The notes: generated by a model not told the origin, from the letters alone. A stretch of 64,000 nt of DNA from an uncultured Bacilli bacterium (GCA_934097015.1 CAKONF010000002.1:4214-68213); one strand, 5' to 3'. Positions 27,362 through 61,188 are shown, counted from the first letter of the stretch. Numbers and translations are program-made.

Positions 27362-28042
27362 TTAAATATGTATTTCTTTTAAGAATTCTTTTAATTCTAT
27401 TTCACTATTTATTCTATTTTTGATAATAGGAAAATGAAGTAAAGTTGTTTTATCTCTTATACTTAATCCACCACAATTTGAAAAATAATTTATAGCAAAA
27501 TTTATAAAATTATTGTTTAGTATTTTTGATTTATAATACTTTTTAATTTTTATAGTTGTAAATGAAATTTCTTCAGAATTCATTTCAAATGTAAAATTAG
27601 AATGTAATAAACCATTTCTTATTGATTTCATTATTTGAATGTTTGTTGCATCTACTGGTCCTTCTATTATTTTTAACCAATTATTAAATATATCATTTTT
27701 ACTTACAATATTATCAAAATCATCTAATATTTTTTTAGAATCTGGAAAAAAATATTCTTTTCTTATATCATTAAATACTCTTATATCATTGTAATTATCT
27801 ATAGTTTCTGATTTTTCGATTGTTTCTTTATTTAATCCTATAAATGCTATTATAATTGTTAATATTAAACTATGTTTTCTTTCTGCAAGAAGTTTACTAT
27901 TATTATATCCTTCAATATTTTGTTTATCTATAAATTCTTTTAATTTTATTTTATCAAAACCATTTCTGTATGCTTCATATAATTGATTTAAGAGTTTAAA
28001 AGCTCTTATATAATATTTATTTTCGTTCGTCATAAAAATCAC
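27362..28042 (-). CDS. HEPN-motif protein (paralog A)
   Basis: IMKSIRNGLLHSNFTF carries the R-N-x3-H motif (27602-27619). The true start is probably the ATG at 28033, preceded by AGGTGA. Confidence 0.5.
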   Translation of the reverse strand: MIFMTNENKYYIRAFKLLNQLYEAYRNGFDKIKLKEFIDKQNIEGYNNSKLLAERKHSLILTIIIAFIGLNKETIEKSETIDNYNDIRVFNDIRKEYFFPDSKKILDDFDNIVSKNDIFNNWLKIIEGPVDATNIQIMKSIRNGLLHSNFTFEMNSEEISFTTIKIKKYYKSKILNNNFINFAINYFSNCGGLSIRDKTTLLHFPIIKNRINSEIELKEFLKEIHI

Positions 28043-29383: not shown

Positions 29384-29466
29384 TCATAAGTTTAGTAGCC
29401 ATTGTTTATTATTTACTAGCATTCCACAATTGTTCCGTTTGCGGTATAAAAAGTATATTTATTTTT

Positions 29467-30774
29467 TTAATTTATTATTTTTTGAATATTTTCTTTAAAT
29501 GTTTTATCTGGTTCTATTTGTGGAATATAATGGTGCATATCTCTCGCTCTTTGTTGCTTTCTAGTATATTCATTATCCACGTTTTCAAAATTCCAATATG
29601 TTCTATATGCCTTACCTATATCAAGATACTCATTTTCTAAATATGAGTTTAATTTAGTTAAAAAACCTGAGAATGTATATTTGTCATCTATTTTAAAATT
29701 TAATAATTTAGAGTAATTATTTGCGGTTATACCAACATCATCTTTTATTTTTGCTATATATCTGCTATAATTTCCATGCATTAATTCAGTATAAAACAAT
29801 AAATCCGTATATTTTAAGATCAACAAAAACGTAACAATATAACATTGCTGTTCAGTCCACTTTTCATCCTCAGAAGTTTCTTCATTATTATAAAGTTTAT
29901 ATTTAGATACAAATTCATTAAAAATCTTATTTGAGTCTCTTAACGAAATATTTAATATTTGAAACATTTCAGATATCTTCTTAATTATTTTATCTAAATT
30001 ATAAATATTAGAAGTATCAATCGTTTCATAAAATCTTATAGACAATAAATTATATTGATAATCAAAAAACTTACTAAAATACTTTTCGCTATCCATTTCT
30101 TGACCAAAAATTGTTTTTGCAGATTCTTCAAGTTGTAATTTATCTACAGCTATTATAAATATGCAGTTTTCAACATCAAAGAAATGTTTAATAATTTCTA
30201 AAGTGTCTATAGCAAAGCTTGGTTTACATCTATCTAATTCATCAACAATAAATATTTGCGGTTCTTTACTACAACATTTTTTTAATTTTGTTTCAATTTT
30301 CTTTTTACACGAAACAAACTCATCAAAATCCTTTTTGTAACATTCGTTTTCTATCCCCATGATATTATCTTTTATATCATTTAAATCAACATCATATTTC
30401 TTTTTATAGAAACCATTAATCATAGCATATAAAGATACTAAAATACCTTTACCAAAATTACTGGTAAGTTTAACTAATTTATCTAATTCTTTACCCAATT
30501 TTAATTTATTCTCCATTGATGCAAAAAAAGGTATGTATGGCGTTTCATAAAAATCATATTCATAAGCATTATAATTTAAAAATAAATTCATATTTTCAGA
30601 TTCAATTATTTTTTCTTCTAATTCATTTAAAAATGTACTTTTTCCAGAACCCCATGCACCGTTTAATAAAATAACTAATCCATTTTTACTATTTTCCTTG
30701 TAATCTTCTCTTTTTCTTATTATTTCCAATAAAACATCAACATCAACTTGTCTTGAAACCTTATTCATCTTCAT
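29467..30774 (-). CDS. KAP family P-loop NTPase
   Basis: VILLNGAWGSGKSTFLNEL (Walker A) and QIFIVDELDRCKPSFAIDTLEIIKHFF (the characteristic KAP Walker B block). Confidence 0.8.
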   Translation of the reverse strand: MKMNKVSRQVDVDVLLEIIRKREDYKENSKNGLVILLNGAWGSGKSTFLNELEEKIIESENMNLFLNYNAYEYDFYETPYIPFFASMENKLKLGKELDKLVKLTSNFGKGILVSLYAMINGFYKKKYDVDLNDIKDNIMGIENECYKKDFDEFVSCKKKIETKLKKCCSKEPQIFIVDELDRCKPSFAIDTLEIIKHFFDVENCIFIIAVDKLQLEESAKTIFGQEMDSEKYFSKFFDYQYNLLSIRFYETIDTSNIYNLDKIIKKISEMFQILNISLRDSNKIFNEFVSKYKLYNNEETSEDEKWTEQQCYIVTFLLILKYTDLLFYTELMHGNYSRYIAKIKDDVGITANNYSKLLNFKIDDKYTFSGFLTKLNSYLENEYLDIGKAYRTYWNFENVDNEYTRKQQRARDMHHYIPQIEPDKTFKENIQKIIN

Positions 30775-30809
30775 ATGATCACTCCTTATAGCTTTTTATT
30801 ATATCATTA

Positions 30810-32465
30810 TTATTTGTTTTTTCCAACTCTGCCATAAGGATTTCTTATTTTATTTTCATCAATATAAATAAATTCTATTTGAGGTATAACATCATACTTA
30901 AACTTGATAGTAATATTTCTATCTTTATCTATTATTATCTTATCTATTAGAGCTTCTATTAACTCTCTTTTTGGCTTAGTTAAATCTAATAATTCTTTAA
31001 TCTTTTTAATGTAATTTGGTAATATACTTTGATTATTTCTTGAAGTATATTTTTTTAATTCTTCTTCATCTATTCTTTCAACAATTTGTTTTAATTTTAA
31101 TTCATATGAACTAGCCAATTCTTTATATACATTAGCAGATATTACTCCATCACACCTATCGTTATACAACATAGATATTTTATTAGTAATCTTTTCTTTT
31201 TCTAATTTTAAACCTTTTATAACTTCATCTATATTTTCTTTTTCTTTATGAATATTCTTTGTTATTTCATTATTTAATTTCTCTAAATCCAATTCATTAA
31301 CTAATTCAGATACGACATTATTAATCTTCTCTAATATTTGTTTTTCTAAATAGTTATATGGAAAGAAATGAGAATAACATCTACCTCTAATAGGATCTCT
31401 TGAATATCTATTACAATTAATAGACCAATAATCTTTATTTCTTCTATAAAGTACGGTTAATCGATTACCACATTCTTTACAAAATAATTTACCTTCTAAT
31501 ATCCTTTTTTCTCTTTTTGTTTTTATTTCATAATTTCTTGTTTTTCTTTTTCTTAAAATATTAACATAATTAAAGGTTTCTCTATCCACTAAAGCTTCAT
31601 GAGTATTTTCAACTATAGTCCATAACTTTTCATCAAGTGTTATTTTCTTCTTTGATTTATAATTAACTTTAGTTTGAACATGTTGCACCATATCACCAGT
31701 ATAAATTCTATTTGATAGTATCTTTGTAACTGTTGTAATATTCCAAGTATCTCTATTAATAAGTTGTGATGAATAAGAAGTCTTTTTATAGCTACTTGGA
31801 GTTGGCACTTTCATTTCATTTAGTTTATTTGCTATTTCAGTAGGTCCAACTCCATTAGCTCTTAATTTAAATATTTCTTTCACAATCCAATCTGTTTCTG
31901 GATTAGGTATTAGATGACCTTTATCTTCCGGATCTCTCATATAACCAAAACTAGGTAAACTCCCAACAAATTTCCCATTTAATCTTTTTTGATTTAATAC
32001 TGCTCTAATTTTAACTGAATTTTGTTTACTATAATAATCATTACAAGCAATAATAAATGTAGATGAATCATTACTTGCTTGTTCTTTAAATGTATCAACT
32101 GATTCCGATATAGAAATAAATCTAATATTATTCTCTGGGAAAAATGTTTCTGTATAATATCCGGTCATAACGTGGTCTCTTCCAAATCTAGATAAATCTT
32201 TAACTATTACACAATTTATCTTTTTGCTTTTTATATCTTCTAGCATTTTTTTAAATGCTGGTCTATCAAAATCAGTTCCAGAAAATCCATCATCAACATA
32301 TTCTCCAACTAGATTAAAATTATTACTATTTACATAACTTCTTAATAATTCTTTTTGATTAATTACACTTTCACTATCAGATTCATATTTTTTATCTTTG
32401 TCTTCTTGAGATAATCTTATATAGATTCCAGTATTGAAATCTTTATCAGTTAAGTTATTATTCAT
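30810..32465 (-). CDS. large serine recombinase (integrase)
   Basis: Resolvase catalytic domain (GIYIRLSQED, YVDDGFSGTDFDRP, VKDLSRFGRD), a recombinase domain, a Cys-rich zinc ribbon (CKECGNRL...CNRY...RGRCYSH) and a coiled-coil C-terminus. 551 aa. Confidence 0.9.
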   Translation of the reverse strand: MNNNLTDKDFNTGIYIRLSQEDKDKKYESDSESVINQKELLRSYVNSNNFNLVGEYVDDGFSGTDFDRPAFKKMLEDIKSKKINCVIVKDLSRFGRDHVMTGYYTETFFPENNIRFISISESVDTFKEQASNDSSTFIIACNDYYSKQNSVKIRAVLNQKRLNGKFVGSLPSFGYMRDPEDKGHLIPNPETDWIVKEIFKLRANGVGPTEIANKLNEMKVPTPSSYKKTSYSSQLINRDTWNITTVTKILSNRIYTGDMVQHVQTKVNYKSKKKITLDEKLWTIVENTHEALVDRETFNYVNILRKRKTRNYEIKTKREKRILEGKLFCKECGNRLTVLYRRNKDYWSINCNRYSRDPIRGRCYSHFFPYNYLEKQILEKINNVVSELVNELDLEKLNNEITKNIHKEKENIDEVIKGLKLEKEKITNKISMLYNDRCDGVISANVYKELASSYELKLKQIVERIDEEELKKYTSRNNQSILPNYIKKIKELLDLTKPKRELIEALIDKIIIDKDRNITIKFKYDVIPQIEFIYIDENKIRNPYGRVGKNK

Positions 32466-32943
32466 TTTATATCCTTTTACTTAAATGGGTGTTAAAACAA
32501 ATGAATGATAATATCATAATAAAATTATTGCAAATCATTATTTAAATGATTCTCCTTTTGTTCTTTAATTATCTCTTTAATAAGATATTGTAAAATAAGA
32601 TCTTTAAACGAAATGTTATTCAAGTAGGCTCCTTCCATAATTAAACCACCTATTTAAATTTATGTTTGTATTTATTATTTTTGAATTTTTTTCATATATA
32701 TATCTACTTTCTTTCTTTTTACATTAGTATTACTAATAATTTTATAGAATTATTTATTATATTATTATTGAACCGAATGTCCTTTGAGCGTAAAAAAAAC
32801 ATCTAACTCTTTAAAAAAAATTTTCTAGTAAGTCAGATGTAAACTTTTCTGTATTAATATAAATTTTTCTTTTTTTGTGCTTTTCGATGCTTTTTTGTGC
32901 CGAATGGTATTATTGTTGAAATTATTTGAAGATAAATTATATA

Positions 32944-35900
32944 CTAAAATTTACTACTTGAAATATTAAAGAATTTATTAAAAAAGCTTAATAATTTATC
33001 TATAACATTATTTTTCTTTTCTTGCCTATCATTTGTAGGCGTAAACATGTTCATAGGTGGAAGAATTGCTGATACTTCAGTACCATTTGTTTCTACTCTT
33101 CCTTGTTCAAATGATTTTTGAATAAAATTGTACGTTTCTTCTTTGTTAAGATTTTCTTCAACAATTATTTTATCTAATTCTTCTTTCTTTTTGCTATCCA
33201 TAAATGATTCAAAATCAGCATATACATTTGAATCTTGATCTAATGATTCAATAAATGACATAATTAAATCTTTCTTATTTCTTAAATCTGGACTTGCCAT
33301 GATTGTCTTTTGAATAGTTACAAGAATTTCTTTATCTTCCATGTTGCTATCATGGTATTTCTTAACTAACCCTAAGATATAATCAATATTAACTTCTATA
33401 GATTTAATTAATTCCATTTCAAATACTACATCTTCAGTAACATCAGTTTTTTCTTGCTTAGCTTTATTTCTAAATTCATTATACAGTTCAATATAGATAC
33501 TATGATAATCTTGCTTATCTCTTTCACTAATTAACTCTTCATTATTGAATTCATCAAATGATGATAATATATTGGTTACTTTTAATATTGCACCATAAAG
33601 TTTTATAAACTCTTTTTGTTCTGTCTCACTTTGCATTAACTCACCTGGAATAAATTTAGAAGTCAAATTTTCAACTAATGTCTTGTATCCTTCGAATATT
33701 TTGCCATTCTCATCTTCATATCCATAATAGTAGTCTTTATATGATTTTAATAATACAATGCCACGTGCGTTTTCATCCCCAAATTTAGCAAGTGCTTCAT
33801 TAAGCCTATCTTCTAAATTTCTAAATGAAACTATATTACCATATGTTTTTACACTATTTAAGATTCTATTAGTTCTTGAGAACGCTTGAATTAATCCATG
33901 CCATTTTAAATTCTTATCAACCCATAATGTATTTAATGTTTTTGCATCAAAACCTGTTAAAAACATATTAGCAACGATTAATATATCTATTTCTCTATTT
34001 TTCATTCTTAGAGATACATCTTTATAGTAATTTTGAAATTTTTCTGATGATGTATCATAACTTGTTCCAAACATATTATTATAATCTTTAATAGCATTTT
34101 CTAAAAATGTTCTATCATCTGTACTTAATGCTTCTGTTGATTCAGAGTTTTCATCAATTACTCCATCTTCTCCATTAACACCATAAGAATATATTATTGC
34201 TACTTTAAGATTACTCTTTTTTATATCTAATTGTTTCTTAAATTCAGCATAGTATTCTTTAGCCATTTTAATGTTGGATACAGCAAACAATGAGTTAAAT
34301 CCATTAATATTCTTCTTAGACTTAATTTCTTCTGCATCTTGTTTTTTAGCTACTGCAGAAACATTATCTAAAGTTGAATAAACATAACTTTCAGATGTCT
34401 TAGTTTTTGTACTAAAATGCTCTATTATATAATCTGTAATCAGAGAAATTCTAATTTGGTTATCAAATAGTTTTTCTTCATCAATATTATATACTTTTTC
34501 ATCTTGAACACCCTCACGAATATCAATTCTTCCAACATATTCATATCTAAATGGTAATACATTCTTATCAGCAATAGCATTTACTATTGTATAAGTATGT
34601 AATCTTTCTCCAAAAATTTGTTCTGTTGTTTCAGAGATACCTTTAATAGTTCTAGCATTCTCTGGAAATATTGGAGTTCCAGTAAATCCAAATAAATAAT
34701 ATTTATTAAACTTCTTAATAATAGCTTTATGCATATCTCCAAATTGAGATCTATGACATTCATCAAATATAAATACTACATGTTTATTAAATACATCACT
34801 GTTCTCATTTTTCTTGATAAATTGTGATAATTTTTGAATTGTAGTAATAATAATCTTAGTACTTGGATCATTTAATTGTCCTTCTAATATTTTTGTTGAG
34901 GTATTAGAATTAGCTGCTCCTTCTTTAAATCTGTCGTATTCTTTCATTGTTTGATAATCTAGGTCTTTTCTATCTACAACGAATAGTACTTTATCAATAA
35001 AATCTAATTTCCTAGCAAGTTGTGAAGTTTTGAACGAAGTTAATGTTTTTCCAGAACCCGTTGTATGCCAAATATAACCACCTGATTTTAAAGTTCCATA
35101 AAACTTATTATTATATGCAATATTAATTCTATTTAAAATCTTTTCAGTAGCAACTATTTGATAAGGACGCATTACTAATAAATCTTCTTCAGAAGTAAAT
35201 ACACAATATTTAGTTAATGTATTTAATAACGTATGTTTAGTAAAAAATGTTCTGGCAAAATCAATTAAATCAGTAATACCATTATTTTTTTGATCTGCCC
35301 AATATGAAGTAAATTCAAATGAGTTTGACTTCTTTTTCTTTTGATTATTTATATGAAACTCTCTTGTAGTATTTGAATAATACTTAGTTAATGTTCCATT
35401 TGATATAACAAATATTTGAACAAAGTTATATAATCCTGATCCTGCCCAGAAAGAATCTCTTTGATATCTTTCTATTTGATTAAAAGCTTCTCTTAAATCT
35501 ACTCCTCTTTTTTTTAGTTCTACATGAACTAAAGGTAGTCCATTTACTAAAATAGTTACATCATATCTATTATCATGTTTTCCATCATTATTAACATACT
35601 GATTTAATACTTGAAGACTATTATTATGAATATTATTCTTATCTATTAAATAGATATTTTTCTTCTCATCTGAATCAAGAGTTATTTCTTGTTTATAATC
35701 TTCTTGAATTAATCTTGTCTTTTCAATAATATAATCATTTTTATTTGCTATTACTTTAGTGAAAAAACTATCCCATTCTCCATCACTAAAATGATAATTA
35801 TTAAGTTTTTCTAATTGTTTTCTTAAGTTAAGAATTAATTCATCTTCAGAGTTAATATTTAGTCTTTCATAACCCTGTTCAACTAAAGTTTTAATTAATT

Positions 35901-36012
35901 CTTTTTCTAAAGCATCTTCACTTTGAAAAGATGTTGTTACTCTATTTAATACTTTATACTCAGTAAGTACTGTTGAATTATCATTTTCACTTATTAATCC
36001 TATATTAGTCAT
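32944..36012 (-). CDS. hsdR: type I restriction enzyme R subunit
   Basis: WHTTGSGKTLTS (motif I) and FIFDECHRSQ (DEAH-type motif II). 1022 aa, in an operon with hsdM and hsdS. Confidence 0.92.
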   Translation of the reverse strand: MTNIGLISENDNSTVLTEYKVLNRVTTSFQSEDALEKELIKTLVEQGYERLNINSEDELILNLRKQLEKLNNYHFSDGEWDSFFTKVIANKNDYIIEKTRLIQEDYKQEITLDSDEKKNIYLIDKNNIHNNSLQVLNQYVNNDGKHDNRYDVTILVNGLPLVHVELKKRGVDLREAFNQIERYQRDSFWAGSGLYNFVQIFVISNGTLTKYYSNTTREFHINNQKKKKSNSFEFTSYWADQKNNGITDLIDFARTFFTKHTLLNTLTKYCVFTSEEDLLVMRPYQIVATEKILNRINIAYNNKFYGTLKSGGYIWHTTGSGKTLTSFKTSQLARKLDFIDKVLFVVDRKDLDYQTMKEYDRFKEGAANSNTSTKILEGQLNDPSTKIIITTIQKLSQFIKKNENSDVFNKHVVFIFDECHRSQFGDMHKAIIKKFNKYYLFGFTGTPIFPENARTIKGISETTEQIFGERLHTYTIVNAIADKNVLPFRYEYVGRIDIREGVQDEKVYNIDEEKLFDNQIRISLITDYIIEHFSTKTKTSESYVYSTLDNVSAVAKKQDAEEIKSKKNINGFNSLFAVSNIKMAKEYYAEFKKQLDIKKSNLKVAIIYSYGVNGEDGVIDENSESTEALSTDDRTFLENAIKDYNNMFGTSYDTSSEKFQNYYKDVSLRMKNREIDILIVANMFLTGFDAKTLNTLWVDKNLKWHGLIQAFSRTNRILNSVKTYGNIVSFRNLEDRLNEALAKFGDENARGIVLLKSYKDYYYGYEDENGKIFEGYKTLVENLTSKFIPGELMQSETEQKEFIKLYGAILKVTNILSSFDEFNNEELISERDKQDYHSIYIELYNEFRNKAKQEKTDVTEDVVFEMELIKSIEVNIDYILGLVKKYHDSNMEDKEILVTIQKTIMASPDLRNKKDLIMSFIESLDQDSNVYADFESFMDSKKKEELDKIIVEENLNKEETYNFIQKSFEQGRVETNGTEVSAILPPMNMFTPTNDRQEKKNNVIDKLLSFFNKFFNISSSKF

Positions 36013-36016
36013 TACT

Positions 36017-36649
36017 TCACACTTCCCATCTATACCATTTCTTATAAAATTCCCAATCTTTTTTTAATTTACACATTTGCATATTGCTCATTAAAGTGTT
36101 AATTCTATTTCGTTCATCACAAATAGAATCTAATGTTTCATCAATTAAAGTCTTCGCATTTTTTATATTTTTTTTATTCTTTTTGCCAATATAATCAAGT
36201 GCAAAAAACACCTTCGCGTCAGTTACATTGTACGCATCTAATAAATCAAGATGTTTTGCATAAAAACTGATGTCATTCTTTTCTTTTATTAAATTATTAT
36301 AGGAATTAATTCTAAAATAATATTCATCATAAACTTTTAAATAGTTTTTATTATTTTTAATTTTATTTAAATTGTCTTTAAAACCATGTAGCCATAAATA
36401 ATAATCTCTTATATTATTTAAAAAAATTGTATCTTGTCTTTCACTCTCATTTTTGTAATCAAATATTAATATACATAATGACACAAATGCTCCTGTAATA
36501 GCATTAATTAATATTGTTTCACAAATATCTATTTGATTTGGTGTAGGATGAAATATCTCAACAAAAATCAAAATAATGATTAAGGTAGTAATCAATAAAA
36601 ATAACCAATACATAGAATTTTTTATTTTATTCATACTGTATATCCTCAA
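36017..36649 (-). CDS. 2-TM membrane protein of unknown function embedded between hsdS and hsdR
   Basis: Hydrophobic helices (WLFLLITTLIIILIFVEIF, AITGAFVSLCILIF) followed by a ~140-aa helical soluble part. The likely start, ATG at 36634, overlaps the hsdS stop, and the gene ends 4 nt before the hsdR start. Confidence 0.6.
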   Translation of the reverse strand: MRIYSMNKIKNSMYWLFLLITTLIIILIFVEIFHPTPNQIDICETILINAITGAFVSLCILIFDYKNESERQDTIFLNNIRDYYLWLHGFKDNLNKIKNNKNYLKVYDEYYFRINSYNNLIKEKNDISFYAKHLDLLDAYNVTDAKVFFALDYIGKKNKKNIKNAKTLIDETLDSICDERNRINTLMSNMQMCKLKKDWEFYKKWYRWEV

Positions 36650-37772
36650 AATTTAATAATTTATTTCTATAATATTCATATTGTTTTCTTCTTAATTCTA
36701 TTTCTGCAGGAAGACCGATTGAAATATCACTTATTAATTTTTCAAACTTATCCAATATACCGACTATTCGATTCTGTTCTTCAATCGGAGGAATTATTAA
36801 ATCAAGTTGCTTAACTGTTGGAGTGGTCAATTGTGGAATGCTACCTCCTGATTGCTTAAATTCGTGTCCATATAATGCATAATGTAAATATTTAGCTGAA
36901 ATTATTTTTTCATCTGGAATAAGAGTTATCAAACGAATTATTGGAGTAAACTTGCCATATCTTACTTCGTGATAACCTATTGTGCCTCTTGCAGCTATAG
37001 TTACACATGATTGAACATCTACTTTATAATTTTTACTATATCCATATATAGCATTCTCTCCTACGCCATTTGATATAACCGGATATTTATAATCATCTTG
37101 CGGTTTAGAAATTCCTTTTATTGTATCTTCAGGTACATCACCGCCTGCAGAAATATTTTTGCATACTTCAGTTATATTATATTTTTTATAATTATCATTC
37201 TTTTTATCCAAGAGTATGACACGCCAAAACTCATATTGACTCTTTCTCGTTTCTATCTCCGCTTCTATCTCCGCTTCTAGCTCGCCAAATTTATCAAGAA
37301 TTCGTACTATTTCCTCTTGTACTTCTAATGGAGGTACAGGTACTTTTAGTTTTTCTATCACCCTTCTATCTAATGTAGGAATACCAGCTTTTCTAACTCT
37401 ACCAATAAAATATTTTTCATTATTCTTTAAATAGTGATACAAAAACCTATTAATAAATAAATCATTATGTTCTAAGCAATAGCAACCATCTGAAGACCAA
37501 AAATTATTTTTTGAATATCCAACTACACCTGCAGATGCTCCAACATTTATTATCATAACGGTATCACTAAAACGATTATATTTATTATAATAACCTAAAG
37601 GGTTCAAACCACCATGATATACAGGATAATTTGCTTCAAAATTTAATTTTTTTATTGTTAATCTCTTTCCTCTTAATACCTTTGAAAAGCTTGAAATTGC
37701 TTTATATTTAACTCCATTAGGACACAACTCTTTTATTAAATCGTTTATCTTACTCATGATAATCAACCTCAA
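36627..37772 (-). CDS. hsdS: type I R-M specificity subunit
   Basis: Two target-recognition halves separated by conserved helices: PPLEVQEEIVRILDKFGELEAEIEAEIETRKSQYEFWR and PPIEEQNRIVGILDKFEKLISDISIGLPAEIELRRKQYEYYR. Confidence 0.9.
   Translation of the reverse strand: MRLIIMSKINDLIKELCPNGVKYKAISSFSKVLRGKRLTIKKLNFEANYPVYHGGLNPLGYYNKYNRFSDTVMIINVGASAGVVGYSKNNFWSSDGCYCLEHNDLFINRFLYHYLKNNEKYFIGRVRKAGIPTLDRRVIEKLKVPVPPLEVQEEIVRILDKFGELEAEIEAEIETRKSQYEFWRVILLDKKNDNYKKYNITEVCKNISAGGDVPEDTIKGISKPQDDYKYPVISNGVGENAIYGYSKNYKVDVQSCVTIAARGTIGYHEVRYGKFTPIIRLITLIPDEKIISAKYLHYALYGHEFKQSGGSIPQLTTPTVKQLDLIIPPIEEQNRIVGILDKFEKLISDISIGLPAEIELRRKQYEYYRNKLLNFEDIQYE
37251..37286. repeat. 12-bp tandem repeat (2 perfect copies plus 1 degenerate) inside the hsdS central conserved helix
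   Basis: TTCTATCTCCGC TTCTATCTCCGC TTCTAGCTCGCC on the plus strand encodes (L)EAEI-EAEI-E on the minus strand. Confidence 0.85.
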
Positions 37773-39345
37773 GTTCTTTAATTATTTCTTCTAGTTCTTC
37801 TCTAATTTGTTGTTGTCTAGGTACAATTTCAGCAAGCTTTCTATTTACTTCTTCTATATCGATTTTTTTATCTTCAGTATTTGTTTTTACATATGAATTA
37901 ACTGAGATATTATAATCATTATCTTTGATTTCTTCATAAGTTGCTAAATAGGATTTATTTTCAATTGATTTTCTATTCTTTAAGAAACTAATTATATTAT
38001 TAATGTTTTCTTCTGATAATTTGTTTTTATTAGATTTTCTAACATATTCACTAGAGGCATCTACAAATAATATATTATTATCTAATTTATTTTTCTTTAA
38101 TACTAAAATACAAGTTGCAATTGATGTACCAAAGAATAAATCAGAAGGTAATTGAATGACAGTATCAACAAAGTTATTATCAATCATATATTTTCTAATC
38201 TTTTGCTCTGCTCCACCTCTATAAAGAACTCCAGGAAATTCAACTATTGCAGCAGTTCCTTTTGGAGAAAGCCATGACAACATATGCATAGTAAAAGCTA
38301 AGTCTGCTTTTGATACTGGTGCCAACACACCAGCTGGAGCAAATCTTTCATCATTTATTAATAGTGGATTAGACTTGCCTGCCCATTTTATTGAATAAGG
38401 GGGATTAGATACTATTGCATCAAATGGTTCATCATTCCAATGTACTGGATGTATTAATGTATCTCCTCTTTCAATACTAAAGTTATTATAATTGATATTA
38501 TGTAAGAACATATTTATTCTAGCTAAGTTGTATGTTGTAAGATTTATTTCTTGACCGAAAAATCCTTCTCTTACATTTTCTTTTCCAAGTATCTTCGCAA
38601 ATTTAAGTAATAATCCACCTGAACCACAAGCAGGATCATATACTTTATTAACAGATGTTTTATCCATTATTACTATTTTAGCAAGTAATTCTCCAACTTC
38701 TTGTGGAGTAAAAAATTCTCCACCTGATTTACCTGCTGATGATGCATACATTGTCATTAAAAATTCATAAGCATCTCCAAATAAATCTATCTTATTTTCT
38801 TCATAATCTCCAAAATTCAATTCTCCTATTGCACTTAATAATTTAACAAGTTTTTCGTTTCTTTCATCAACTGTATTACCCAATTTATTATCTATGGTAA
38901 AATCATCAAATAACCCTTTAACATCATTCTCTGATGCAGTTCCTCTTGCTGATGATTCAATATTATTAAATATATTAGAAATTACTACATTTAAATTTTC
39001 ATTTTTATCGGCATTTTTTCTAACGTTACAAAATAATTCACTAGGTAAAATAAATAATCCTTTTTCTTCTAATATTTGTGTTTTTCCCAATAATGCTTCA
39101 TCATCAGATATATTTCTATATTTAAAATCTTCAATACCTACTTTTCTTTGATTTTCATTAACATAATTTTCTATATTTTCTGAAATAAATCTATAAAATA
39201 ATAGACCTAATACATATTGTTTAAAATCCCATCCATCTACTGAACCTCTTAAATCATTTGCTATTTTCCAAATAGTTTTATGCAATTCTTCTCTTTCAAT
39301 CTCTTTTTTATTATTCATTAACTTCCACACTCCTAGTACTTTCAT
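37750..39345 (-). CDS. hsdM: type I R-M N6-adenine DNA methyltransferase subunit
   Basis: HsdM N-terminal domain (LHKTIWKIANDLRGSVDGWDFKQYVLGLLFYRF), DPACGSGG (SAM-binding motif) and VSNPPYSIKW (NPPY motif). The true start is probably the internal MNNKKEIE. Confidence 0.92.
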   Translation of the reverse strand: MKVLGVWKLMNNKKEIEREELHKTIWKIANDLRGSVDGWDFKQYVLGLLFYRFISENIENYVNENQRKVGIEDFKYRNISDDEALLGKTQILEEKGLFILPSELFCNVRKNADKNENLNVVISNIFNNIESSARGTASENDVKGLFDDFTIDNKLGNTVDERNEKLVKLLSAIGELNFGDYEENKIDLFGDAYEFLMTMYASSAGKSGGEFFTPQEVGELLAKIVIMDKTSVNKVYDPACGSGGLLLKFAKILGKENVREGFFGQEINLTTYNLARINMFLHNINYNNFSIERGDTLIHPVHWNDEPFDAIVSNPPYSIKWAGKSNPLLINDERFAPAGVLAPVSKADLAFTMHMLSWLSPKGTAAIVEFPGVLYRGGAEQKIRKYMIDNNFVDTVIQLPSDLFFGTSIATCILVLKKNKLDNNILFVDASSEYVRKSNKNKLSEENINNIISFLKNRKSIENKSYLATYEEIKDNDYNISVNSYVKTNTEDKKIDIEEVNRKLAEIVPRQQQIREELEEIIKELEVDYHE

Positions 39346-39389
39346 TTACAATTATATCATGAATTTTGTTTTTTTGGGGTTTAATTCCA

Positions 39390-39417
39390 GCAAAAAAGAA
39401 GAAATTAATCTTCTTCT
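39390..39417 (-). terminator. intrinsic terminator after the Fic gene, separating it from the hsd operon
   Basis: Minus-strand AGAAGAA-GATTAAT-TTCTTCT followed by TTTTTT. Confidence 0.6.
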
Positions 39418-39542
39418 GTATGTCTATTTTTTATTTATAGTATTCAACATTATAATTTTGATTGTTATCAAGTATTAGTTCTAAATTAAATTTCTATTTA
39501 TTAGCATCTCTTATTATTTAAAATTTATAAAAATACTATAAA

Positions 39543-40085
39543 TTAATTATTTTTATCAAACAATTCTTGAACAATTAAATCCTTTGAATATAGATTATTG
39601 TTCTTACCTAATAATAAATTTTCATAAAATTTAACTAAATAACTACTATCTTCTTTTATATTTAAATAATTATTAAAATAATTACTTCTTACTAAAGCAT
39701 TTCTAAAATAAACTGATTTATCTTTAAATAAACTATTATCAACTTTATAACCCAAACTAATTAAATACTTTTCAATAAATAAAGCTGTAGTTCTAGTATT
39801 TTCTTCTCTAAAAGGATGGACTTGCCATATACTGGAAGAAAACTTAGTTATGTTATTAATAACTTCAACTATATTCATTTTTTTATAATTTTTTTCTACC
39901 TCTTCTATTGTTAAATTACCTTCTACTTCTTCCACTAATAATCTTTCTAAGTATTTAGAAGGTTTTAAATTATCAACTTCTTGTAATCCAATAGCCATAT
40001 CCCATTGCAACTGTTTTTCATAATTACTAGATTTATAGCTTTCTTCATATTCATTAGCACTCGAATCTAATTCTTTTTCGTCCAT
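39543..40085 (-). CDS. small Fic/Fido-fold protein with a degenerate active-site motif
   Basis: HPFREENTRTTALF, versus the canonical HPFxxGNGRxxR. 180 aa. Confidence 0.6.
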   Translation of the reverse strand: MDEKELDSSANEYEESYKSSNYEKQLQWDMAIGLQEVDNLKPSKYLERLLVEEVEGNLTIEEVEKNYKKMNIVEVINNITKFSSSIWQVHPFREENTRTTALFIEKYLISLGYKVDNSLFKDKSVYFRNALVRSNYFNNYLNIKEDSSYLVKFYENLLLGKNNNLYSKDLIVQELFDKNN

Positions 40086-40129
40086 AATTTAAACCTCCTA
40101 ACTATATATAATCATAACATATATTTGAA

Positions 40130-42187
40130 TTAAATAATCACTAACTCATCATAAATATTTTGTAAAACATTCATGCTATACACAAATATTGGTGGAACAA
40201 TTTTAGAAGATGAATGATTAAATGAATTTATAACAAAATTATATGTGTTATAAAATGATAACAATTTATCGTTATTCAAATATGGAATCAAATCACCAAT
40301 ATTCTCATAATCCATATTTACTTCATTTACTACTTTTGTTTCGAATATTCTTCTAATTTTCATGCCAAGTAAGTATTTATAAATTAAAATATAACAGACA
40401 TCTTTTTTATCAACCAAATTAATATTACCCGAATTAGATTTTACTTTAATATTAATATCATCAAAACTATTTGTTATATTTTCAAAAACTTCTGATACCT
40501 TCTCATTATCATTATCATTTAAATTAAATTTAAAAATAGTATTTATTGAATTCAATAAATCTAATACAATAATGTCCTTTTTAACATGATTAATTGAGTT
40601 TGAAATTATATGATATATATTATCAATTTTAAATGCCAAATTTATAATATCTTGCTCATCATTATATTTTATAAGCAATCTTTCCATGTTAATTTCATTT
40701 CTTAACATAGATGCAAAAGTTATTAAAGAGTATTTATCAACTAGCTTATCACAAATCTTTAATATTAATCCATAATCATATGGATTAACATCCATTTTTG
40801 ATAAAAGTTTATAACTATCATTATAAATCAATATTTCATTGGAATTATTCAATTTATCTAACCAATATATATTAAATTTTTCTAATGTGTTTTTATTAAT
40901 AGAATCAAACAAATATATAGCATACATACTATGTGAAAAAATATTAAATGTATCAATGTCACTAATCGAAGAATTGACTAACTTTACAATTATATTTATT
41001 GAATCTTGTACATATATATCATCATAGCTATCAAAAGGATCATCTACAATAATATTTAATTTGCCAGCAGTCTTTTTTTGATAAACCAATATGTCAAAAT
41101 ATAAAAATTTAAAAAAATTCTGTTCTGATTTAGACATGTTTTTGTATTTAACTTCTGAATTTGTAATTTGTAATTTGCCATCTTCTATTCTTATCTTAAT
41201 ATCACTATTCTTATAAACAGAATGCTGTTCAATTTTATTTTTTATATATTCATATGCTTCTGAAGTTTCCTCTAATCTAAAATCTTTTATTTCTCTCATT
41301 ATAACGTCTAATTCTTTCTTACTTTCTAAATAAGTTTCAATAATCTTTTCATCATAAAAATCTTTTAAATAATAAAGAATTGAACTTTGGATTAATGAAA
41401 TAATTTTATTTTTTTCTTCTTCATATAAACTAGATATTAAAAATTCACTAACGACACTATTTACTTTTTCATCAGAATTTTCTAGATAATAAAGTAATGA
41501 TTGTTTTAATGTATCATCAATAGTACCATTCTCGACACTATTCCTTATTAATTCTATAGATTCGGATGTTATATCATTATAGCATACAGGACATTTTTCA
41601 TATAGTTCACGATTATCCAATATTTTCTTTTGTAAATTATAAATTTCAATATTAACCATACTTTTTATTTTTTCTGGAATTATAATAATTCTATCTTTTA
41701 TTAAAATATCCATTATTTCAAAAAAGTTTAATAAACCAGTTTTAGGCTTTTTAAATAAAGTTTTAATCTCTTCTTCTGTATATAAAGGTTCTTCAAAATC
41801 TCCTTTATATGTAAAGACATCATTATTTATAAATTCGGTGATATAACAAAAATCTATAAATGCTTTTTTAGTATCAGTTGAACATATATCTTTAATATTC
41901 TTCTTGACAGATAGTTTCTTTTTAGAATTTTCATTTTTATTTTTATATTTATTATATTCTTGAACTTTAGGCATTATTTCAAATGAATTATCATCTGTAA
42001 ACTCCTGAATTGACATATTTGAAAGTAAATCATCATCAAATAAAAGTACATTTTCATCACAATCTTCATAATACTTTTTTAATGCCTTTGATACTTGTGT
42101 TTTTCCAATTTTATTAGGTCCATAAAAAATATTATATTTATTATTTATCATATTGATCATATTGCCGTTTTCTAATTGTAAATTCAT
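40130..42187 (-). CDS. AAA_13/ABC-type ATPase with a PrrC/RloC-like C-terminal region (putative anticodon nuclease)
   Basis: Walker A IFYGPNKIGKT, CxxC CPVCYNDI, Walker B/D-loop LNIIVDDPFDSYDD and H-loop-like NIFSHS. The C-terminus has IRRIFE (R-x3-E) and, 46 residues on, INSFNHSSS. Adjacent to the type I R-M operon. Confidence 0.6.
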   Translation of the reverse strand: MNLQLENGNMINMINNKYNIFYGPNKIGKTQVSKALKKYYEDCDENVLLFDDDLLSNMSIQEFTDDNSFEIMPKVQEYNKYKNKNENSKKKLSVKKNIKDICSTDTKKAFIDFCYITEFINNDVFTYKGDFEEPLYTEEEIKTLFKKPKTGLLNFFEIMDILIKDRIIIIPEKIKSMVNIEIYNLQKKILDNRELYEKCPVCYNDITSESIELIRNSVENGTIDDTLKQSLLYYLENSDEKVNSVVSEFLISSLYEEEKNKIISLIQSSILYYLKDFYDEKIIETYLESKKELDVIMREIKDFRLEETSEAYEYIKNKIEQHSVYKNSDIKIRIEDGKLQITNSEVKYKNMSKSEQNFFKFLYFDILVYQKKTAGKLNIIVDDPFDSYDDIYVQDSINIIVKLVNSSISDIDTFNIFSHSMYAIYLFDSINKNTLEKFNIYWLDKLNNSNEILIYNDSYKLLSKMDVNPYDYGLILKICDKLVDKYSLITFASMLRNEINMERLLIKYNDEQDIINLAFKIDNIYHIISNSINHVKKDIIVLDLLNSINTIFKFNLNDNDNEKVSEVFENITNSFDDINIKVKSNSGNINLVDKKDVCYILIYKYLLGMKIRRIFETKVVNEVNMDYENIGDLIPYLNNDKLLSFYNTYNFVINSFNHSSSKIVPPIFVYSMNVLQNIYDELVII

Positions 42188-42203
42188 GTTTTCAACTCCT
42201 CTG

Positions 42204-44477
42204 CTAAATTATAGATTTATAAAAATTTTCAACAATATTTATTGTTTCTAATGTATCATTATCAACATTGGGATTTATATAATTATCTTTGTTAAAGGCA
42301 TCATCTATGTAATCTTCAAATTCTATCATACTAAATGATTTAAGATTCATTTCCATTTCATTAAGTAAATTTATACTCATACCATCACTTTCTAAATTTT
42401 TTATTATTAAAATTTTTATATCATTATATTCACTATATAATATTTCTTCTGCACAGGTTTCTTTTGAATCTTGAGAAAAAATATAATATTTAATTTCTGA
42501 GTCAATTAAATCATCAATTTCATTAATACTACATTTAATTATTTGATTTTGAAGTTTTATTGAAAATTTTGAAAAATTTTTAATAATAATCTTAGTTATA
42601 TTATTATTAAATCCATCAATTGAAAAGGAAATATATTTACCAATGTTACTTGTAAAACTCAATCTTTCCAAAATTTCATTTTCTGCAATAAAATTTTCTC
42701 TTAAAAAACAATCTTCATTATATGAAAATGAATTTTTTTCAGAAAATATTTTATCCTTTATATATGTTGCAAATTCATCGTCTTTTAATATTGAAGCATC
42801 CATTTTTTTTAGGATTTCAAAATTTGTATAATCTAATTCAATTACTTTCTGTTTCCTTTTCTTTATGTCAATTTTATCATTTAGTAGTATATTATCTAAT
42901 TCTTCCTTATTTTCAACTTTATCAATAAAAATTATCATATCATTTGATTTCTTAAATTTGTTAATGCAATAATCCATTACTGAAGGATCATAAAATTTGC
43001 AAATAAAATTATTTCCACTAGCATAAATGCTTACGAATGATTTTTCCAATTTTTTAAGACTTATTTTAAATTCTTCCTCCGTAATATTAAAATGAGATAT
43101 TATTCTATATAAACTATCAACCTTTACTTCATAATTGTTTTTGTACACACTTTTTAAATATATTGCTTTTATAATGAGCCTCTCATTATTTTCTAAGTTA
43201 TTGTTGTATGAATGATCATATATTAAATAAGGATTATCTAGATTTTCAATAAATTTATCAATATAATTATCATCAAAATTGATAAAATCCAACCTTGTCA
43301 TTAACTCTACTAAACGTGGATTATAATTTTTATGATATATAATTCTATATATATTTAATGAATTAGTAATTTTTTCAATATAAAAATTACCTTTTTCAAA
43401 TAAATTATACATACACTTTTGGGGGATGTTTGATAATTTTAAATGCTTTATTAATATACGAGCTTTTTCTGCATAAGTAAACTGAGATGTTTCTATTACA
43501 AATGGTTTTAATCCTAATCTACCAATTTTATCATACTTTTGATTAACATCATTAAAAAAACTAATTCTGGAATTTATGATAATTTTTAAATTTCTGTTTG
43601 TATTTTCAAGTAAAGAGACAATTTCTGAATCAGAAATTGTAGACATAAAATCTATATTATTTGATCCAAATATATCATCAATAAATAATATAAATTTTTC
43701 TTCATCATTATACTCTTGTAAAATATCCTTTAAATTTTTATTAGGAGAATACAATAATTTATAACCAATTTCTAAGTACTTTGCTACCAAAAATTTAGAA
43801 TTATAACTTTTGCCAACTCCTGGATTACCAACAAGTATTAAAAGATTTTTATCTTCTAGATGTTTTATACACTTAGCTGTTATACTTGTTGGAACAAATT
43901 TTTTACAAGTATTTTCTATATCTCTTAAAATTGTTTCTTGTTGATATTTACTATATCCTCCAAATAGTTTTCTTAAATCATCTAATTTAACTGGTAAAAT
44001 GATAGAAGATTTCAGAAAATTTAATACATCATCTATTTTTTCTTCTTGATTTTCTAACAATTTTATAATTTTTTCAAAATTTATTATATCACCATCAATA
44101 GAAAAATTTTTGTATTGACTGAAAGTTTTGATTCTTGGCTTATATGATGAATCTAATAAAAAAAATTTCAGTTTAATAGTTGAATTAAAATTTAATGTTT
44201 CTTTTATCTTCCTAGAATTTGTTTCACTTGTAATTTGAATCCCTATTTTGTTTTTTTCATCTATCAAATCAATATAAGGATAATTGATTTTTTTTAAATT
44301 GCAGTTTTCATAATTACCTATTTCCATAATTTCTAGTAATTTAAGTACAAAATTTTCAATAGATATGTTAATATCTGTATATGCAAAATCATTATTTATT
44401 TTGATAATTGATTCTAGCCAAGAAAAATACTGTATTATGGTTTTAATTTTTTCCTCATTTGATAGCATATATATCAC
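42204..44477 (-). CDS. large P-loop NTPase (STAND/AAA-like) with a SMEK-like N-terminal domain
   Basis: Walker A LILVGNPGVGKSY and Walker B FILFIDDIFG. The N-terminus YTDINISIENFVLKLLEI...INYPYIDLIDEKNKIGIQITSETNSRKIKETL matches my recollection of the SMEK domain pattern. Ends 16 nt upstream of the next gene. Confidence 0.6.
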   Translation of the reverse strand: MIYMLSNEEKIKTIIQYFSWLESIIKINNDFAYTDINISIENFVLKLLEIMEIGNYENCNLKKINYPYIDLIDEKNKIGIQITSETNSRKIKETLNFNSTIKLKFFLLDSSYKPRIKTFSQYKNFSIDGDIINFEKIIKLLENQEEKIDDVLNFLKSSIILPVKLDDLRKLFGGYSKYQQETILRDIENTCKKFVPTSITAKCIKHLEDKNLLILVGNPGVGKSYNSKFLVAKYLEIGYKLLYSPNKNLKDILQEYNDEEKFILFIDDIFGSNNIDFMSTISDSEIVSLLENTNRNLKIIINSRISFFNDVNQKYDKIGRLGLKPFVIETSQFTYAEKARILIKHLKLSNIPQKCMYNLFEKGNFYIEKITNSLNIYRIIYHKNYNPRLVELMTRLDFINFDDNYIDKFIENLDNPYLIYDHSYNNNLENNERLIIKAIYLKSVYKNNYEVKVDSLYRIISHFNITEEEFKISLKKLEKSFVSIYASGNNFICKFYDPSVMDYCINKFKKSNDMIIFIDKVENKEELDNILLNDKIDIKKRKQKVIELDYTNFEILKKMDASILKDDEFATYIKDKIFSEKNSFSYNEDCFLRENFIAENEILERLSFTSNIGKYISFSIDGFNNNITKIIIKNFSKFSIKLQNQIIKCSINEIDDLIDSEIKYYIFSQDSKETCAEEILYSEYNDIKILIIKNLESDGMSINLLNEMEMNLKSFSMIEFEDYIDDAFNKDNYINPNVDNDTLETINIVENFYKSII

Positions 44478-44723
44478 CTCTAATTAAAAAATAAGCAGTA
44501 TCCATCTTAAAAAGATTAAATACTGCTCATCTTTATAAATATATATTATCATACTTCGACATTTTTTTCAGTATTTTCAGGACAATTTACTATTTTTTTA
44601 GTTAAAAAACAAAAAAATAGCATTTATTCTTCAAATAAACACTATTTCTACAATATTTAATATCTTTCTAGATATTTATACTATCTAGCTCGATTGCTTA
44701 AATACAGCCGTCTTAATACCCAA

Positions 44724-45038
44724 TCAAATTATGTAATGGTAAGTAAACTCGCCACCTCCTGCATTTATGTGATTAGATATAATTAGTACATCTTTATCAT
44801 TTCCAAATTTTGATAAAGCTACACCTGGTCTATCATCACTAGTCAAAGTTATATCACTATCGCGTGTTAAAGCAACTGGAATACCCAACTCTTTAAATCT
44901 ATCATACATATATTTACTAATTTCTAAAGTTAAATTTTTCTCAATTATACCATTACCTGAAGCTCCTTGATCTTCTCCGCCATGTCCAGCATCAATAACA
45001 ATACCTTTTAAAGCTCTTGTATAGTTCATTTTAATCAC
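44724..45038 (-). pseudogene. 5' portion of the interrupted amidase (Amidase_3 N-terminal half), ending in element-derived codons
   Basis: MNYTRALKGIVIDAGHGGEDQGASGNGIIEKNLTLEIS...LIISNHINAGGG, then EFTYHYII* read from the element end. No signal peptide. Confidence 0.85.
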
Positions 45039-61061: not shown

Positions 61062-61188
61062 AAATAAAAAACTCTTGAAAGAGTTATTGTTATAAAAATC
61101 TCTTTCATCGATATTAGCATTACCACCTTACTATTGCAGGTTGGTATGAGTTCTTAGAGCTAATTCTCTCCCTCATTCTTGATAAAAA
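61062..61188 (-). ncRNA. SAM-I (S-box)-like riboswitch with terminator in the metK leader
   Basis: Minus strand: UUAUCAAGAAUGAGGGAGAGAAUUAGCUCUAAGAACUCAUACCAACC...GGUGGUAAUGCUAAUAUCGAUGAA. The S-box core elements are recognisable: AUCAAGA, GAGGGA, CAACC...GGUG.UAA and a P1 UUAUC/GAUGA. The terminator AACUCUUUCAAGAGUUUUUU follows. Confidence 0.65.

Follow-up and report, generated by a model that had tools for sequence, protein, structure and literature searches.

The window analysed here, a 64,000-nt stretch of DNA (GCA_934097015.1, CAKONF010000002.1:4214-68213), comes from an uncultured, very AT-rich gut Bacilli-type bacterium and contains three co-oriented open reading frames (ORFs) next to a type I restriction-modification (R-M) operon. 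These ORFs, which we call genes 1, 2 and 3, are tightly spaced, with gaps of 16 nt between genes 1 and 2 and 44 nt between genes 2 and 3 (coordinates of all features are given in Table 1). Because the G+C content of the window is ∼22%, ORFs of ∼700 codons are very unlikely to have arisen by chance, and homologues are numerous for each of the three ORFs. A preliminary description of this DNA had presented the three genes as one novel defence system. Its coordinates and gaps for the co-oriented ORFs were reproduced, all of the motifs that it quoted (GNPGVGKS, ILFIDDIFG, GPNKIGKT, CPVCYN, DDPFDSYDD, FSHS, IRRIFE, NSFNH and HPFREENTRTT) were found in the translations, its domain assignments for the individual genes were largely right, and the defence context is real. 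The idea of a single system was not sustained: each gene is found elsewhere without the other two, and the apparent 'new three-gene system' probably resolves into a cargo array of independent modules. Homologous loci and proteins are referred to below by L and P numbers, respectively.

Gene 1 had initially been called as a protein of 757 aa. The ORF itself stands, whereas the length probably does not: the most likely start is the ATG at 44468, because the resulting 754 aa is the length of most full-length relatives and because the GTG at 44477 lies inside the ribosome-binding sequence GAGGTG. The N-terminal module, previously recognized as SMEK-like, matched SMEK_N of Pfam (E = 5e-21, 75.4 bits with a cut-off of 27) and also that of NCBIfam, and the P-loop NTPase proved to be nSTAND3 (Pfam, E = 7e-30, 104.2 bits with a cut-off of 27.2). 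In addition, gene 1 matched the PADLOC single-gene candidate PDC-S73 (1.5e-41 across aa 179-733), and the N-terminal 150 residues of the family profile matched the Mrr domain of a Mrr-APAZ prokaryotic Argonaute (PDB 26bh_D, 3.9e-14). Gene 1 therefore encodes an effector-NTPase-sensor STAND protein of an already known candidate kind; PDC-S73 is itself a prediction, for which no experimental test was found in the literature checked. The dN/dS ratio (nonsynonymous to synonymous substitution rates) of 0.13-0.27 indicates that the gene is under purifying selection.

The nSTAND3 domain is the NTPase module of Avs5, and SMEK is among the interchangeable effector domains of LmuA in short Lamassu systems. 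Gene 1 shares with Avs5 the effector-NTPase-sensor layout and the nSTAND3 NTPase, and with the Mrr_cat-nSTAND3 'restriction endonucleases' an N-terminal domain homologous to Mrr-type nuclease domains; its farther relatives of similar length (708-796 aa) mostly contain Mrr_cat where gene 1 has SMEK_N. It differs from both in that its effector is SMEK_N and neither Sir2, as in Avs5, nor a canonical Mrr_cat, and it matched no Avs hidden Markov model (HMM). We infer that gene 1 may act as an Avs-like single-protein sensor, in which binding of a ligand to the C-terminal sensor region would cause oligomerization through the nSTAND3 switch and thereby turn on the N-terminal SMEK/Mrr-like nuclease effector.

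Among the three genes, only gene 2 is truly uncharacterized. Its product is an ABC ATPase of the Rad50/SMC type, in which a helical insert bears the CPxC motif and the helical C-terminal domain is an orphan; this architecture is RloC-like. The ABC ATPase motif set is complete, with GPNKIGKT, MSKSEQ (the ABC signature, aa 351-356), IIVDDPFDSYDD and SHS (the linchpin, aa 418-420) being invariant or nearly so across the family; the signature and the linchpin flank the Walker B/D-loop, the family-level form of which is DDPFDSYD. The motif C199-P-V-C202 is located within the predicted helical insert (aa ∼75-330) and is zinc-hook-like by sequence, and C199, P200 and C202 never vary among the 13-20 members aligned, not even in the most distant ones. 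The AlphaFold model of the whole protein (predicted local distance difference test, pLDDT, 83) had Rad50, LmuB and the ATPases of retrons Ec83 and Eco8 as its top Foldseek matches. A dN/dS of 0.14-0.16 points to purifying selection on this gene as well.

The gene 2 family is rare. A 5.8-billion-sequence index yielded 51 proteins, an exhaustive profile search of 1.84 billion sequences yielded 33 cluster representatives (E <= 1e-3), and searches of plasmids and of IMG/VR contigs returned none. It was found here solely in gut metagenomes and gut metagenome-assembled genomes (MAGs), and the matches in genome collections come from MAGs of uncultured gut bacteria, with the labels Bacilli, Tenericutes, Roseburia sp. 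or just 'bacterium'. Direct scans of Pfam, PADLOC and NCBIfam yielded no match to gene 2, and a comparison with Pfam AAA_13 (PF13166) gave nothing at E <= 1. Therefore, the earlier assignment to AAA_13 does not hold as a direct Pfam match. It is retained in a transitive sense, through P0066, a distant relative with a profile E of 5.9e-19 to the gene 2 family and a score of 43.4 against AAA_13 (cut-off 36), and structurally through the Rad50-type fold. Another distant relative, P0054, matched the PADLOC PrrC model in its ATPase part only.

The C-terminal ∼220 residues of gene 2 contain a set of conserved residues, namely D471, R496, H534, R612/R613, E616, K618, N654, H658 and S659. Several of these form a putative nuclease motif, R612-x3-E616-x41-H658 (family consensus IRRxxEKK...NSF(N/S)HSS), in which H658 is invariant and E616 is conserved in at least 90% of the family. 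In the two most distant members, a Lys occupies the position of R612 and the conserved Arg is R613, a shift by one. The motif is to be read as a pattern match only. The defining features of RloC are the ABC motifs, a CxxC hook and Arg-x3-Glu-x36-52-His, often with Ser just before the His (PMC2610378), and in PrrC a Lys usually comes directly after the Glu of the motif (PMC1484252). The preliminary reading of an R-x3-E...H arrangement in gene 2 was thus reasonable, and the spacing of x41 fits the RloC/PrrC pattern. The corresponding domain was not detected in HMM or fold searches. Searches of PDB with sequence profiles of the full-length family (alignment A1) and of the C-terminal domain (alignment A5) gave no match at E <= 10, and no PrrC or RloC chain was among the PDB matches. 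The C-terminal domain modelled alone was confident (pLDDT 86, predicted template modelling score 0.85), and Foldseek comparison with PDB and BFVD returned chance-level helical matches only (best E ∼1), and these databases thus gave no basis for assigning HEPN or another nuclease fold; a Pfam scan of 15 C-terminal domains of the family gave scattered noise only. Homology of this domain to PrrC/RloC-type nucleases was thus neither confirmed nor excluded by HMM or fold.

Compared with RloC, the wobble-nucleotide-excising anticodon nuclease of Geobacillus kaustophilus and others, gene 2 has in common the ABC ATPase motifs, the CxxC zinc-hook motif in a helical insert, the C-proximal Arg-x3-Glu-x36-52-His pattern (x41 in gene 2) with a Ser or Asn next to the His, and a stand-alone occurrence, often near R-M genes. 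It differs in being shorter (∼685 versus ∼800 aa, with a shorter insert), in lacking a direct AAA_13 or PADLOC match, in having a C-terminal domain that is unrecognizable by sequence or fold, and in the displacement of the Arg in its most distant members. If these resemblances reflect function, the Rad50-type ABC head with its CPxC hook would hold the C-terminal domain, which bears R-x3-E-(K)...(S/N)-H, in a latent state; a DNA-damage or anti-restriction signal might then lead to cleavage of RNA, most likely in tRNA anticodon loops, and to the arrest of translation.

Gene 3 is, as far as can be judged from its sequence, an inactivated remnant of a widespread 282-aa Fic protein that has lost half of the Fic core. 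Its earlier description as a degenerate Fic was right in that the gene is defective, and the defect can be given more exactly: DNA alignment with the orthologue in L013 revealed a clean 306-nt in-frame deletion, by which 102 internal residues (∼66-167 of 282 aa) are gone. The junction lies between 39891 and 39890, and the endpoints fall within A-rich short repeats. Only profile positions 47-93 of Pfam Fic (PF02661) are left, and the score of 22.4 bits is under the 24-bit cut-off, compared with 45.5 bits for the intact orthologue, which also matches PADLOC PDC-S72 (4.8e-81, positions 6-274) and has the Fic domains of Bartonella Bep/VbhT as its nearest solved relatives. The ∼280-aa family (L013 12103-12948 and 120 homologues, P0123-P0242) is unusually conserved, with 88-94% identity across more than 100 clusters, and all 120 close homologues are 278-283 aa in length. 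The N-terminal segment of the Fic protein (WDMAIGLQEVDNLKPSK...EG.LT.EEV) resembles, and may be, a fused VbhA-type antitoxin helix.

The Fic motif of the window, HPFREENTRTTA, departs from the catalytic HxFx(D/E)GNGRxxR, and so does that of the intact family, the consensus of which is HPFREGNTRTTA (present in 108 of the 120 close homologues). Of the two motif glycines that had been reported as lost in gene 3, one was indeed lost specifically in the window, by a Gly-to-Glu change seen in none of the 120 homologues, whereas the absence of the other is family-wide. Because the family motif itself deviates, AMPylation by the intact Fic proteins is not assured, and their activity may be another. 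The retained parts of gene 3 have a dN/dS of 0.08-0.14, which suggests that the deletion is recent; decay of the gene by drift was considered and rejected on the same grounds. In L039, the Fic gene is frameshifted into ORFs of 171 and 108 aa (4831-5669); this is an independent second case of disruption, although an error in the assembly is possible.

The region upstream of gene 1 (44478-44723), for which a promoter had been proposed, turned out to belong to a mobile element, of which it is the left end. An ORF at 44724-45038 encodes the N-terminal part of an Amidase_3/LysM protein, the C-terminal part of which picks up at ∼29383. Comparison with an intact paralogue placed the cut between ...HINAGG and GAEGAEVIY..., and the split position is identical in L007, L013, L030 and L033 (several contigs from gut metagenomes and one or more MAGs). 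The junctions, located near 29384-29395 and 44750-44756, share the common core AGGTG, and the gene order between them is gene 1, gene 2, gene 3, hsdM-hsdS-orf210-hsdR, a large serine recombinase gene and a KAP NTPase gene. The split amidase and this gene content define a ∼15.4-kb integrative element, which is integrated by the large serine recombinase.

Within the left end of the element are a conserved box, a sequence resembling an extended -10 element and a leader hairpin followed by a U-run. This hairpin is strong (-21 kcal/mol, z = -6.46) and conserved; the interpretation of 44478-44723 as a simple promoter was rejected, the region being element backbone that bears the hairpin. It is kept upstream of the first cargo gene, about 25-30 nt from the start codon, irrespective of whether that gene is gene 2 (L007-10), gene 1 (L013 and L030) or HamA (L032-34 and L036); its positions are 7945-7978 in L007, 7662-7693 in L013, 5939-5972 in L030 and 795-828 in L032. 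It could serve as an insulating terminator, as an attenuator-type leader that holds down the expression of toxic cargo, or as a site of cargo exchange. The second structure to be considered, an AT-rich hairpin with a T-run between gene 3 and hsdM (39390-39417, minus strand), is weak (-8.9 kcal/mol, z = -2.4) and absent from the output of the terminator scan, and the intrinsic terminator formerly placed there is not supported. A -10-like sequence, TGATATAAT, comes after this hairpin.

Homologues of the three genes do co-occur: five loci contain the triad, namely the window, L013 (85 and 89% identity to the window for genes 1 and 2), L014 (97% for gene 2, with an intact Fic), L038 (69 and 75%, with a Fic N-terminus) and L039 (94 and 95%). 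However, the triad is restricted to this one lineage, down to ∼70-75% identity, and outside it the genes behave as modules. Even among the triad loci, the genes downstream of Fic vary, being a type I R-M operon, an EcoRI-like methyltransferase (MTase) with GmrSD, a MazG-like protein with an SLFN-type helicase, or a 340-aa ORF beside a C5-MTase. The same slot behind the same hairpin contains gene 1-gene 2-Fic in the window and L013, gene 1 with an OLD-like ATPase-TOPRIM and Fic in L030, gene 2 alone followed by a C5-MTase and a restriction endonuclease in L007-10, and HamA-HamB-Fic-hsdR in L032-36. Fic separates the first cargo module from the cargo further downstream in six of the seven layouts obtained for the element family.

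Each gene also has a wider distribution of its own. In L007-10, gene 2 (62% identity) is the sole gene of the triad kind in the slot and precedes a type II R-M system. Its homologues with 33-59% identity are found on other islands, at prophage ends and on integrative mobilizable elements, without gene 1 or an operon-type Fic (L001-L006, L011-12 and L015-24); overall, gene 2 homologues (33-62% identity) occur in about eight further contexts from which both gene 1 and Fic are missing. Gene 1 homologues precede the OLD-like ATPase-TOPRIM gene and then Fic (64% identity, L030), precede PDC-M62A/B (56%), are flanked by an AriA-like ATPase gene and DUF5677 (49%), or precede an uncharacterized gene (34%). 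The distances to the ABC-type ATPase genes are 12-34 nt (PDC-M62A/B, L025 7412-10208; OLD-like ATPase-TOPRIM, L030 8277-9485; AriA-like, L028 4579-5967). The 621-aa ABC ATPase that follows the gene 1 homologue in L025 was considered as kin of gene 2 and rejected (hhalign probability 3.8%); it is PDC-M62A. On three plasmids carrying distant Mrr_cat-nSTAND3 relatives, no adjoining gene is annotated as an ABC ATPase. A metagenome scan for further gene 1 loci recovered three, too few for neighbour statistics, and a scan of IMG/VR for gene 1 found nothing. At least 7,993 matches were obtained for the Fic family compared with 51 for gene 2, and in the same element type Fic occurs after Hachiman and before type I R-M. 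Between the window and L014, the synonymous divergence (dS) is 0.28 for Fic and 0.086 for gene 2, indicating that the history of Fic differs from that of gene 2.

On the strength of these findings, we consider it fairly likely that the region represents the stretch nearest to the promoter in a co-transcribed but modular cargo array of a serine-recombinase element, and that genes 1-3 are self-contained defence modules, one of them broken, that were placed side by side by recombination. The three genes are probably co-transcribed. The sequence comparisons show how the domains are arranged, which motifs are conserved, that genes 1 and 2 are under purifying selection, what gene 3 has lost, where the element ends and that its modules are exchanged; the biochemical activities and triggers are all inferred. 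If the modules of the apparent triad are independent, close operon-like spacing on a mobile element says little about whether genes work as a unit. Several observations weigh against this interpretation. First, the gene 1-gene 2-Fic order persists to 69-75% identity (L038) and across elements that carry different cargo downstream (the window, L013, L014 and L039), which would also fit a functional unit, and the short gaps and the lack of internal terminators suggest co-expression. Second, gene 1 homologues lie beside some ABC-type ATPase gene in four of the five distinct contexts, which may exceed what chance in defence islands would give, although the loci are too few to separate chance from partnership. 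Third, the C-terminal domain of gene 2 was unrecognized by any HMM or fold search run, and a putative RNase activity is suggested by motif resemblance only.

The persistence of the triad to ∼70% identity and the proximity of gene 1 to ABC ATPases keep a Lamassu-like partnership alive as an alternative, although we regard it as unlikely. Under this hypothesis, genes 1 and 2 would be the two components of a Lamassu/ABC-3C-type system, in which gene 2 senses DNA ends or foreign DNA and frees or activates the SMEK-nuclease of gene 1, with Fic as an accessory. An SMC/Rad50-like ATPase with a CxxC motif next to a SMEK-effector protein does recall these systems: SMEK occurs as an LmuA effector domain in short Lamassu, the fold of gene 2 resembles both Rad50 and LmuB, and distant gene 2 relatives match LmuB HMMs. 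The pair is also separated by just 16 nt and is retained in all five triad loci, and gene 1 homologues often adjoin other ABC ATPases. On the other hand, gene 2 is usually solitary, being found alone in the other contexts mentioned above and even in this very slot of related elements, and has its own conserved, catalytic-looking C-terminal domain. Gene 1 likewise has its own NTPase switch, with a STAND NTPase where LmuA has its C-terminal domain, and matches a single-gene candidate. Moreover, neither gene matches the LmuA, LmuB or LmuC HMMs, and neither LmuC nor a third small kleisin-like gene is present.

A role of gene 2, with Fic, as a PrrC-style second line of defence that is silenced by the Hsd complex and freed when a phage anti-restriction protein inactivates Hsd is similarly improbable. 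In its favour, gene 2 resembles PrrC of the EcoprrI system in having an ABC ATPase with a C-terminal R-x3-E-K...H pattern, also seen in RloC, and type I R-M genes immediately nearby, and methyltransferase or restriction genes lie near gene 2 family members in the window, L001, L002, L007-10, L013, L022 and L039. Multi-pronged neighbourhoods of ABC-HEPN, DOC and R-M genes are also on record (Anantharaman et al. 2013, PMC3710099). However, the R-M partner varies by locus (type I, type II, type IV or none), which makes a specific protein-protein latch unlikely, and several gene 2 loci (L003-6) have no R-M gene nearby. PrrC is also smaller (∼400 aa), lacks the zinc-hook insert and is encoded between hsdS and hsdR in a type Ic operon; gene 2 is outside the hsd operon, upstream of hsdM, with gene 3, the hairpin and the -10-like box in between, and the hsdS/hsdR position is held by an unrelated 210-aa membrane ORF. 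The PADLOC PrrC model misses gene 2, and the Fic of the window is broken.

A broader version of partnership, in which PDC-S73-type SMEK/Mrr-nSTAND3 NTPases are dedicated partners of diverse ABC-type ATPase nucleases (gene 2, OLD-like, PtuA-like PDC-M62A and AriA-like), is quite doubtful. If it were true, genes 1 and 2 would represent a hybrid STAND/SMC-like defence system of an undescribed kind, and the orphan C-terminal domain of gene 2 would be a new nuclease fold. Finally, one obligate three-component system new to science is very improbable and largely refuted by the neighbourhood data: the tight co-oriented arrangement and the retention of the triad in five related loci would agree with it, but every gene occurs without the other two, Fic has been broken twice independently among the triad loci (by deletion in the window and by frameshift in L039) while genes 1 and 2 are under purifying selection, and genes 1 and 3 match the single-gene candidates PDC-S73 and PDC-S72.

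The preliminary description did not recognize this combination of genes as a described system. RloC-like ABC-HEPN genes that accompany R-M genes and Fic/DOC toxins in mobile neighbourhoods were described by Anantharaman et al. (2013, PMC3710099), and the region shares with them an RloC-like ABC-nuclease-type gene, Fic and R-M on a mobile element. It differs in the additional STAND NTPase in front, in the defective Fic and in the C-terminal domain of gene 2 being only putatively HEPN. Judging from their profile matches, genes 1 and 3 belong to existing PADLOC candidate families; the intact 282-aa Fic orthologue resembles PDC-S72 and the VbhT/Bep Fic proteins, from which the copy in the window is set apart by the missing residues and by its HPFREENTRTT motif.

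What is new is thus modest. The first novelty is a rare RloC-like variant that is missed by current HMM libraries and has an unrecognizable C-terminal domain; gene 2 is a cheap candidate for a test of anticodon-nuclease-type abortive infection. The second is a serine-recombinase element family with a fixed cargo slot. This hairpin-preceded slot exchanges defence modules (genes 1 and 2, gene 2, gene 1 with OLD, or Hachiman), usually followed by the same Fic, and could be used, on a 'guilt-by-slot' basis, to look for more defence genes in uncultured gut bacteria of the low-GC Bacilli type.

Table 1. Features of the integrative element and its cargo genes in the window.
Feature	Position	Strand	Remarks
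Gene 1, ORF as first called	42204-44477	minus	Most likely start moves 5' end to 44468
Gene 1, corrected	42204-44468	minus	754 aa; SMEK_N (Mrr-like effector), nSTAND3 and ∼400-aa C-terminal region (predicted)
Gene 1, SMEK_N domain	44058-44438	minus	Pfam, NCBIfam and PDB profile match
Gene 1, nSTAND3 P-loop NTPase domain	43437-43898	minus	Walker A GNPGVGKS, Walker B ILFIDD
Gene 2	40130-42187	minus	685 aa
Gene 2, Walker A GPNKIGKT (aa 23-30)	42098-42121	minus	Nearly invariant in alignment A1
Gene 2, CPVC (aa 199-202), zinc-hook-like	41582-41593	minus	Conserved to most distant members
Gene 2, Walker B/D-loop NIIVDDPFDSYDD (aa 377-389)	41021-41059	minus	Columns invariant in alignments A1 and A4
Gene 2, C-terminal domain (aa 462-685)	40133-40804	minus	Conservation and confident model
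Gene 3	39543-40085	minus	180 aa
Gene 3, motif HPFREENTRTT	39786-39818	minus	
Integrative element, ∼15.4 kb	29384-44754		Boundaries within about 10 nt; splits LysM/Amidase_3 gene
attB junction (predicted, on excision of the element)			...AATGCAGGAGGTGC...
Leader hairpin (AGCAGTAT...ATACTGCT) and U-run	44487-44534	minus	Up to just before ribosome-binding site of first cargo gene
Type I R-M operon	32944-39345	minus	
hsdM	37750-39345	minus	PADLOC MTase_I 1.4e-123
hsdS	36627-37772	minus	PADLOC Specificity_I 5.8e-79
orf210 (210 aa)	36017-36649	minus	Between hsdS and hsdR; two predicted N-terminal membrane helices
hsdR	32944-36012	minus	PADLOC REase_I E = 0
Large serine recombinase	30810-32465	minus	65-68% identical to Resolvase/Recombinase/Zn_ribbon_recom genes in L007 and L013
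KAP-family P-loop NTPase	29467-30774	minus	Pfam KAP_NTPase 8.9e-34; PADLOC PDC-S20 9.4e-55

Within the R-M operon, orf210 gave no match in Pfam and PADLOC scans and is a candidate 'embedded' defence or abortive-infection gene, located at the spot that is held by prrC in EcoprrI. The KAP NTPase gene is the last gene inside the element, between the serine recombinase gene and the right end; in L013, its place is taken by a 427-aa gene with no Pfam match. The element resembles the 'intervening elements' that interrupt sporulation genes. Just past the right end of the element, there is a 226-aa ORF (27362-28042, minus strand) with no Pfam or PADLOC match, and a SAM (S-box) riboswitch is present elsewhere in the window at 61102-61188 on the minus strand (Rfam RF00162, 58.2 bits).

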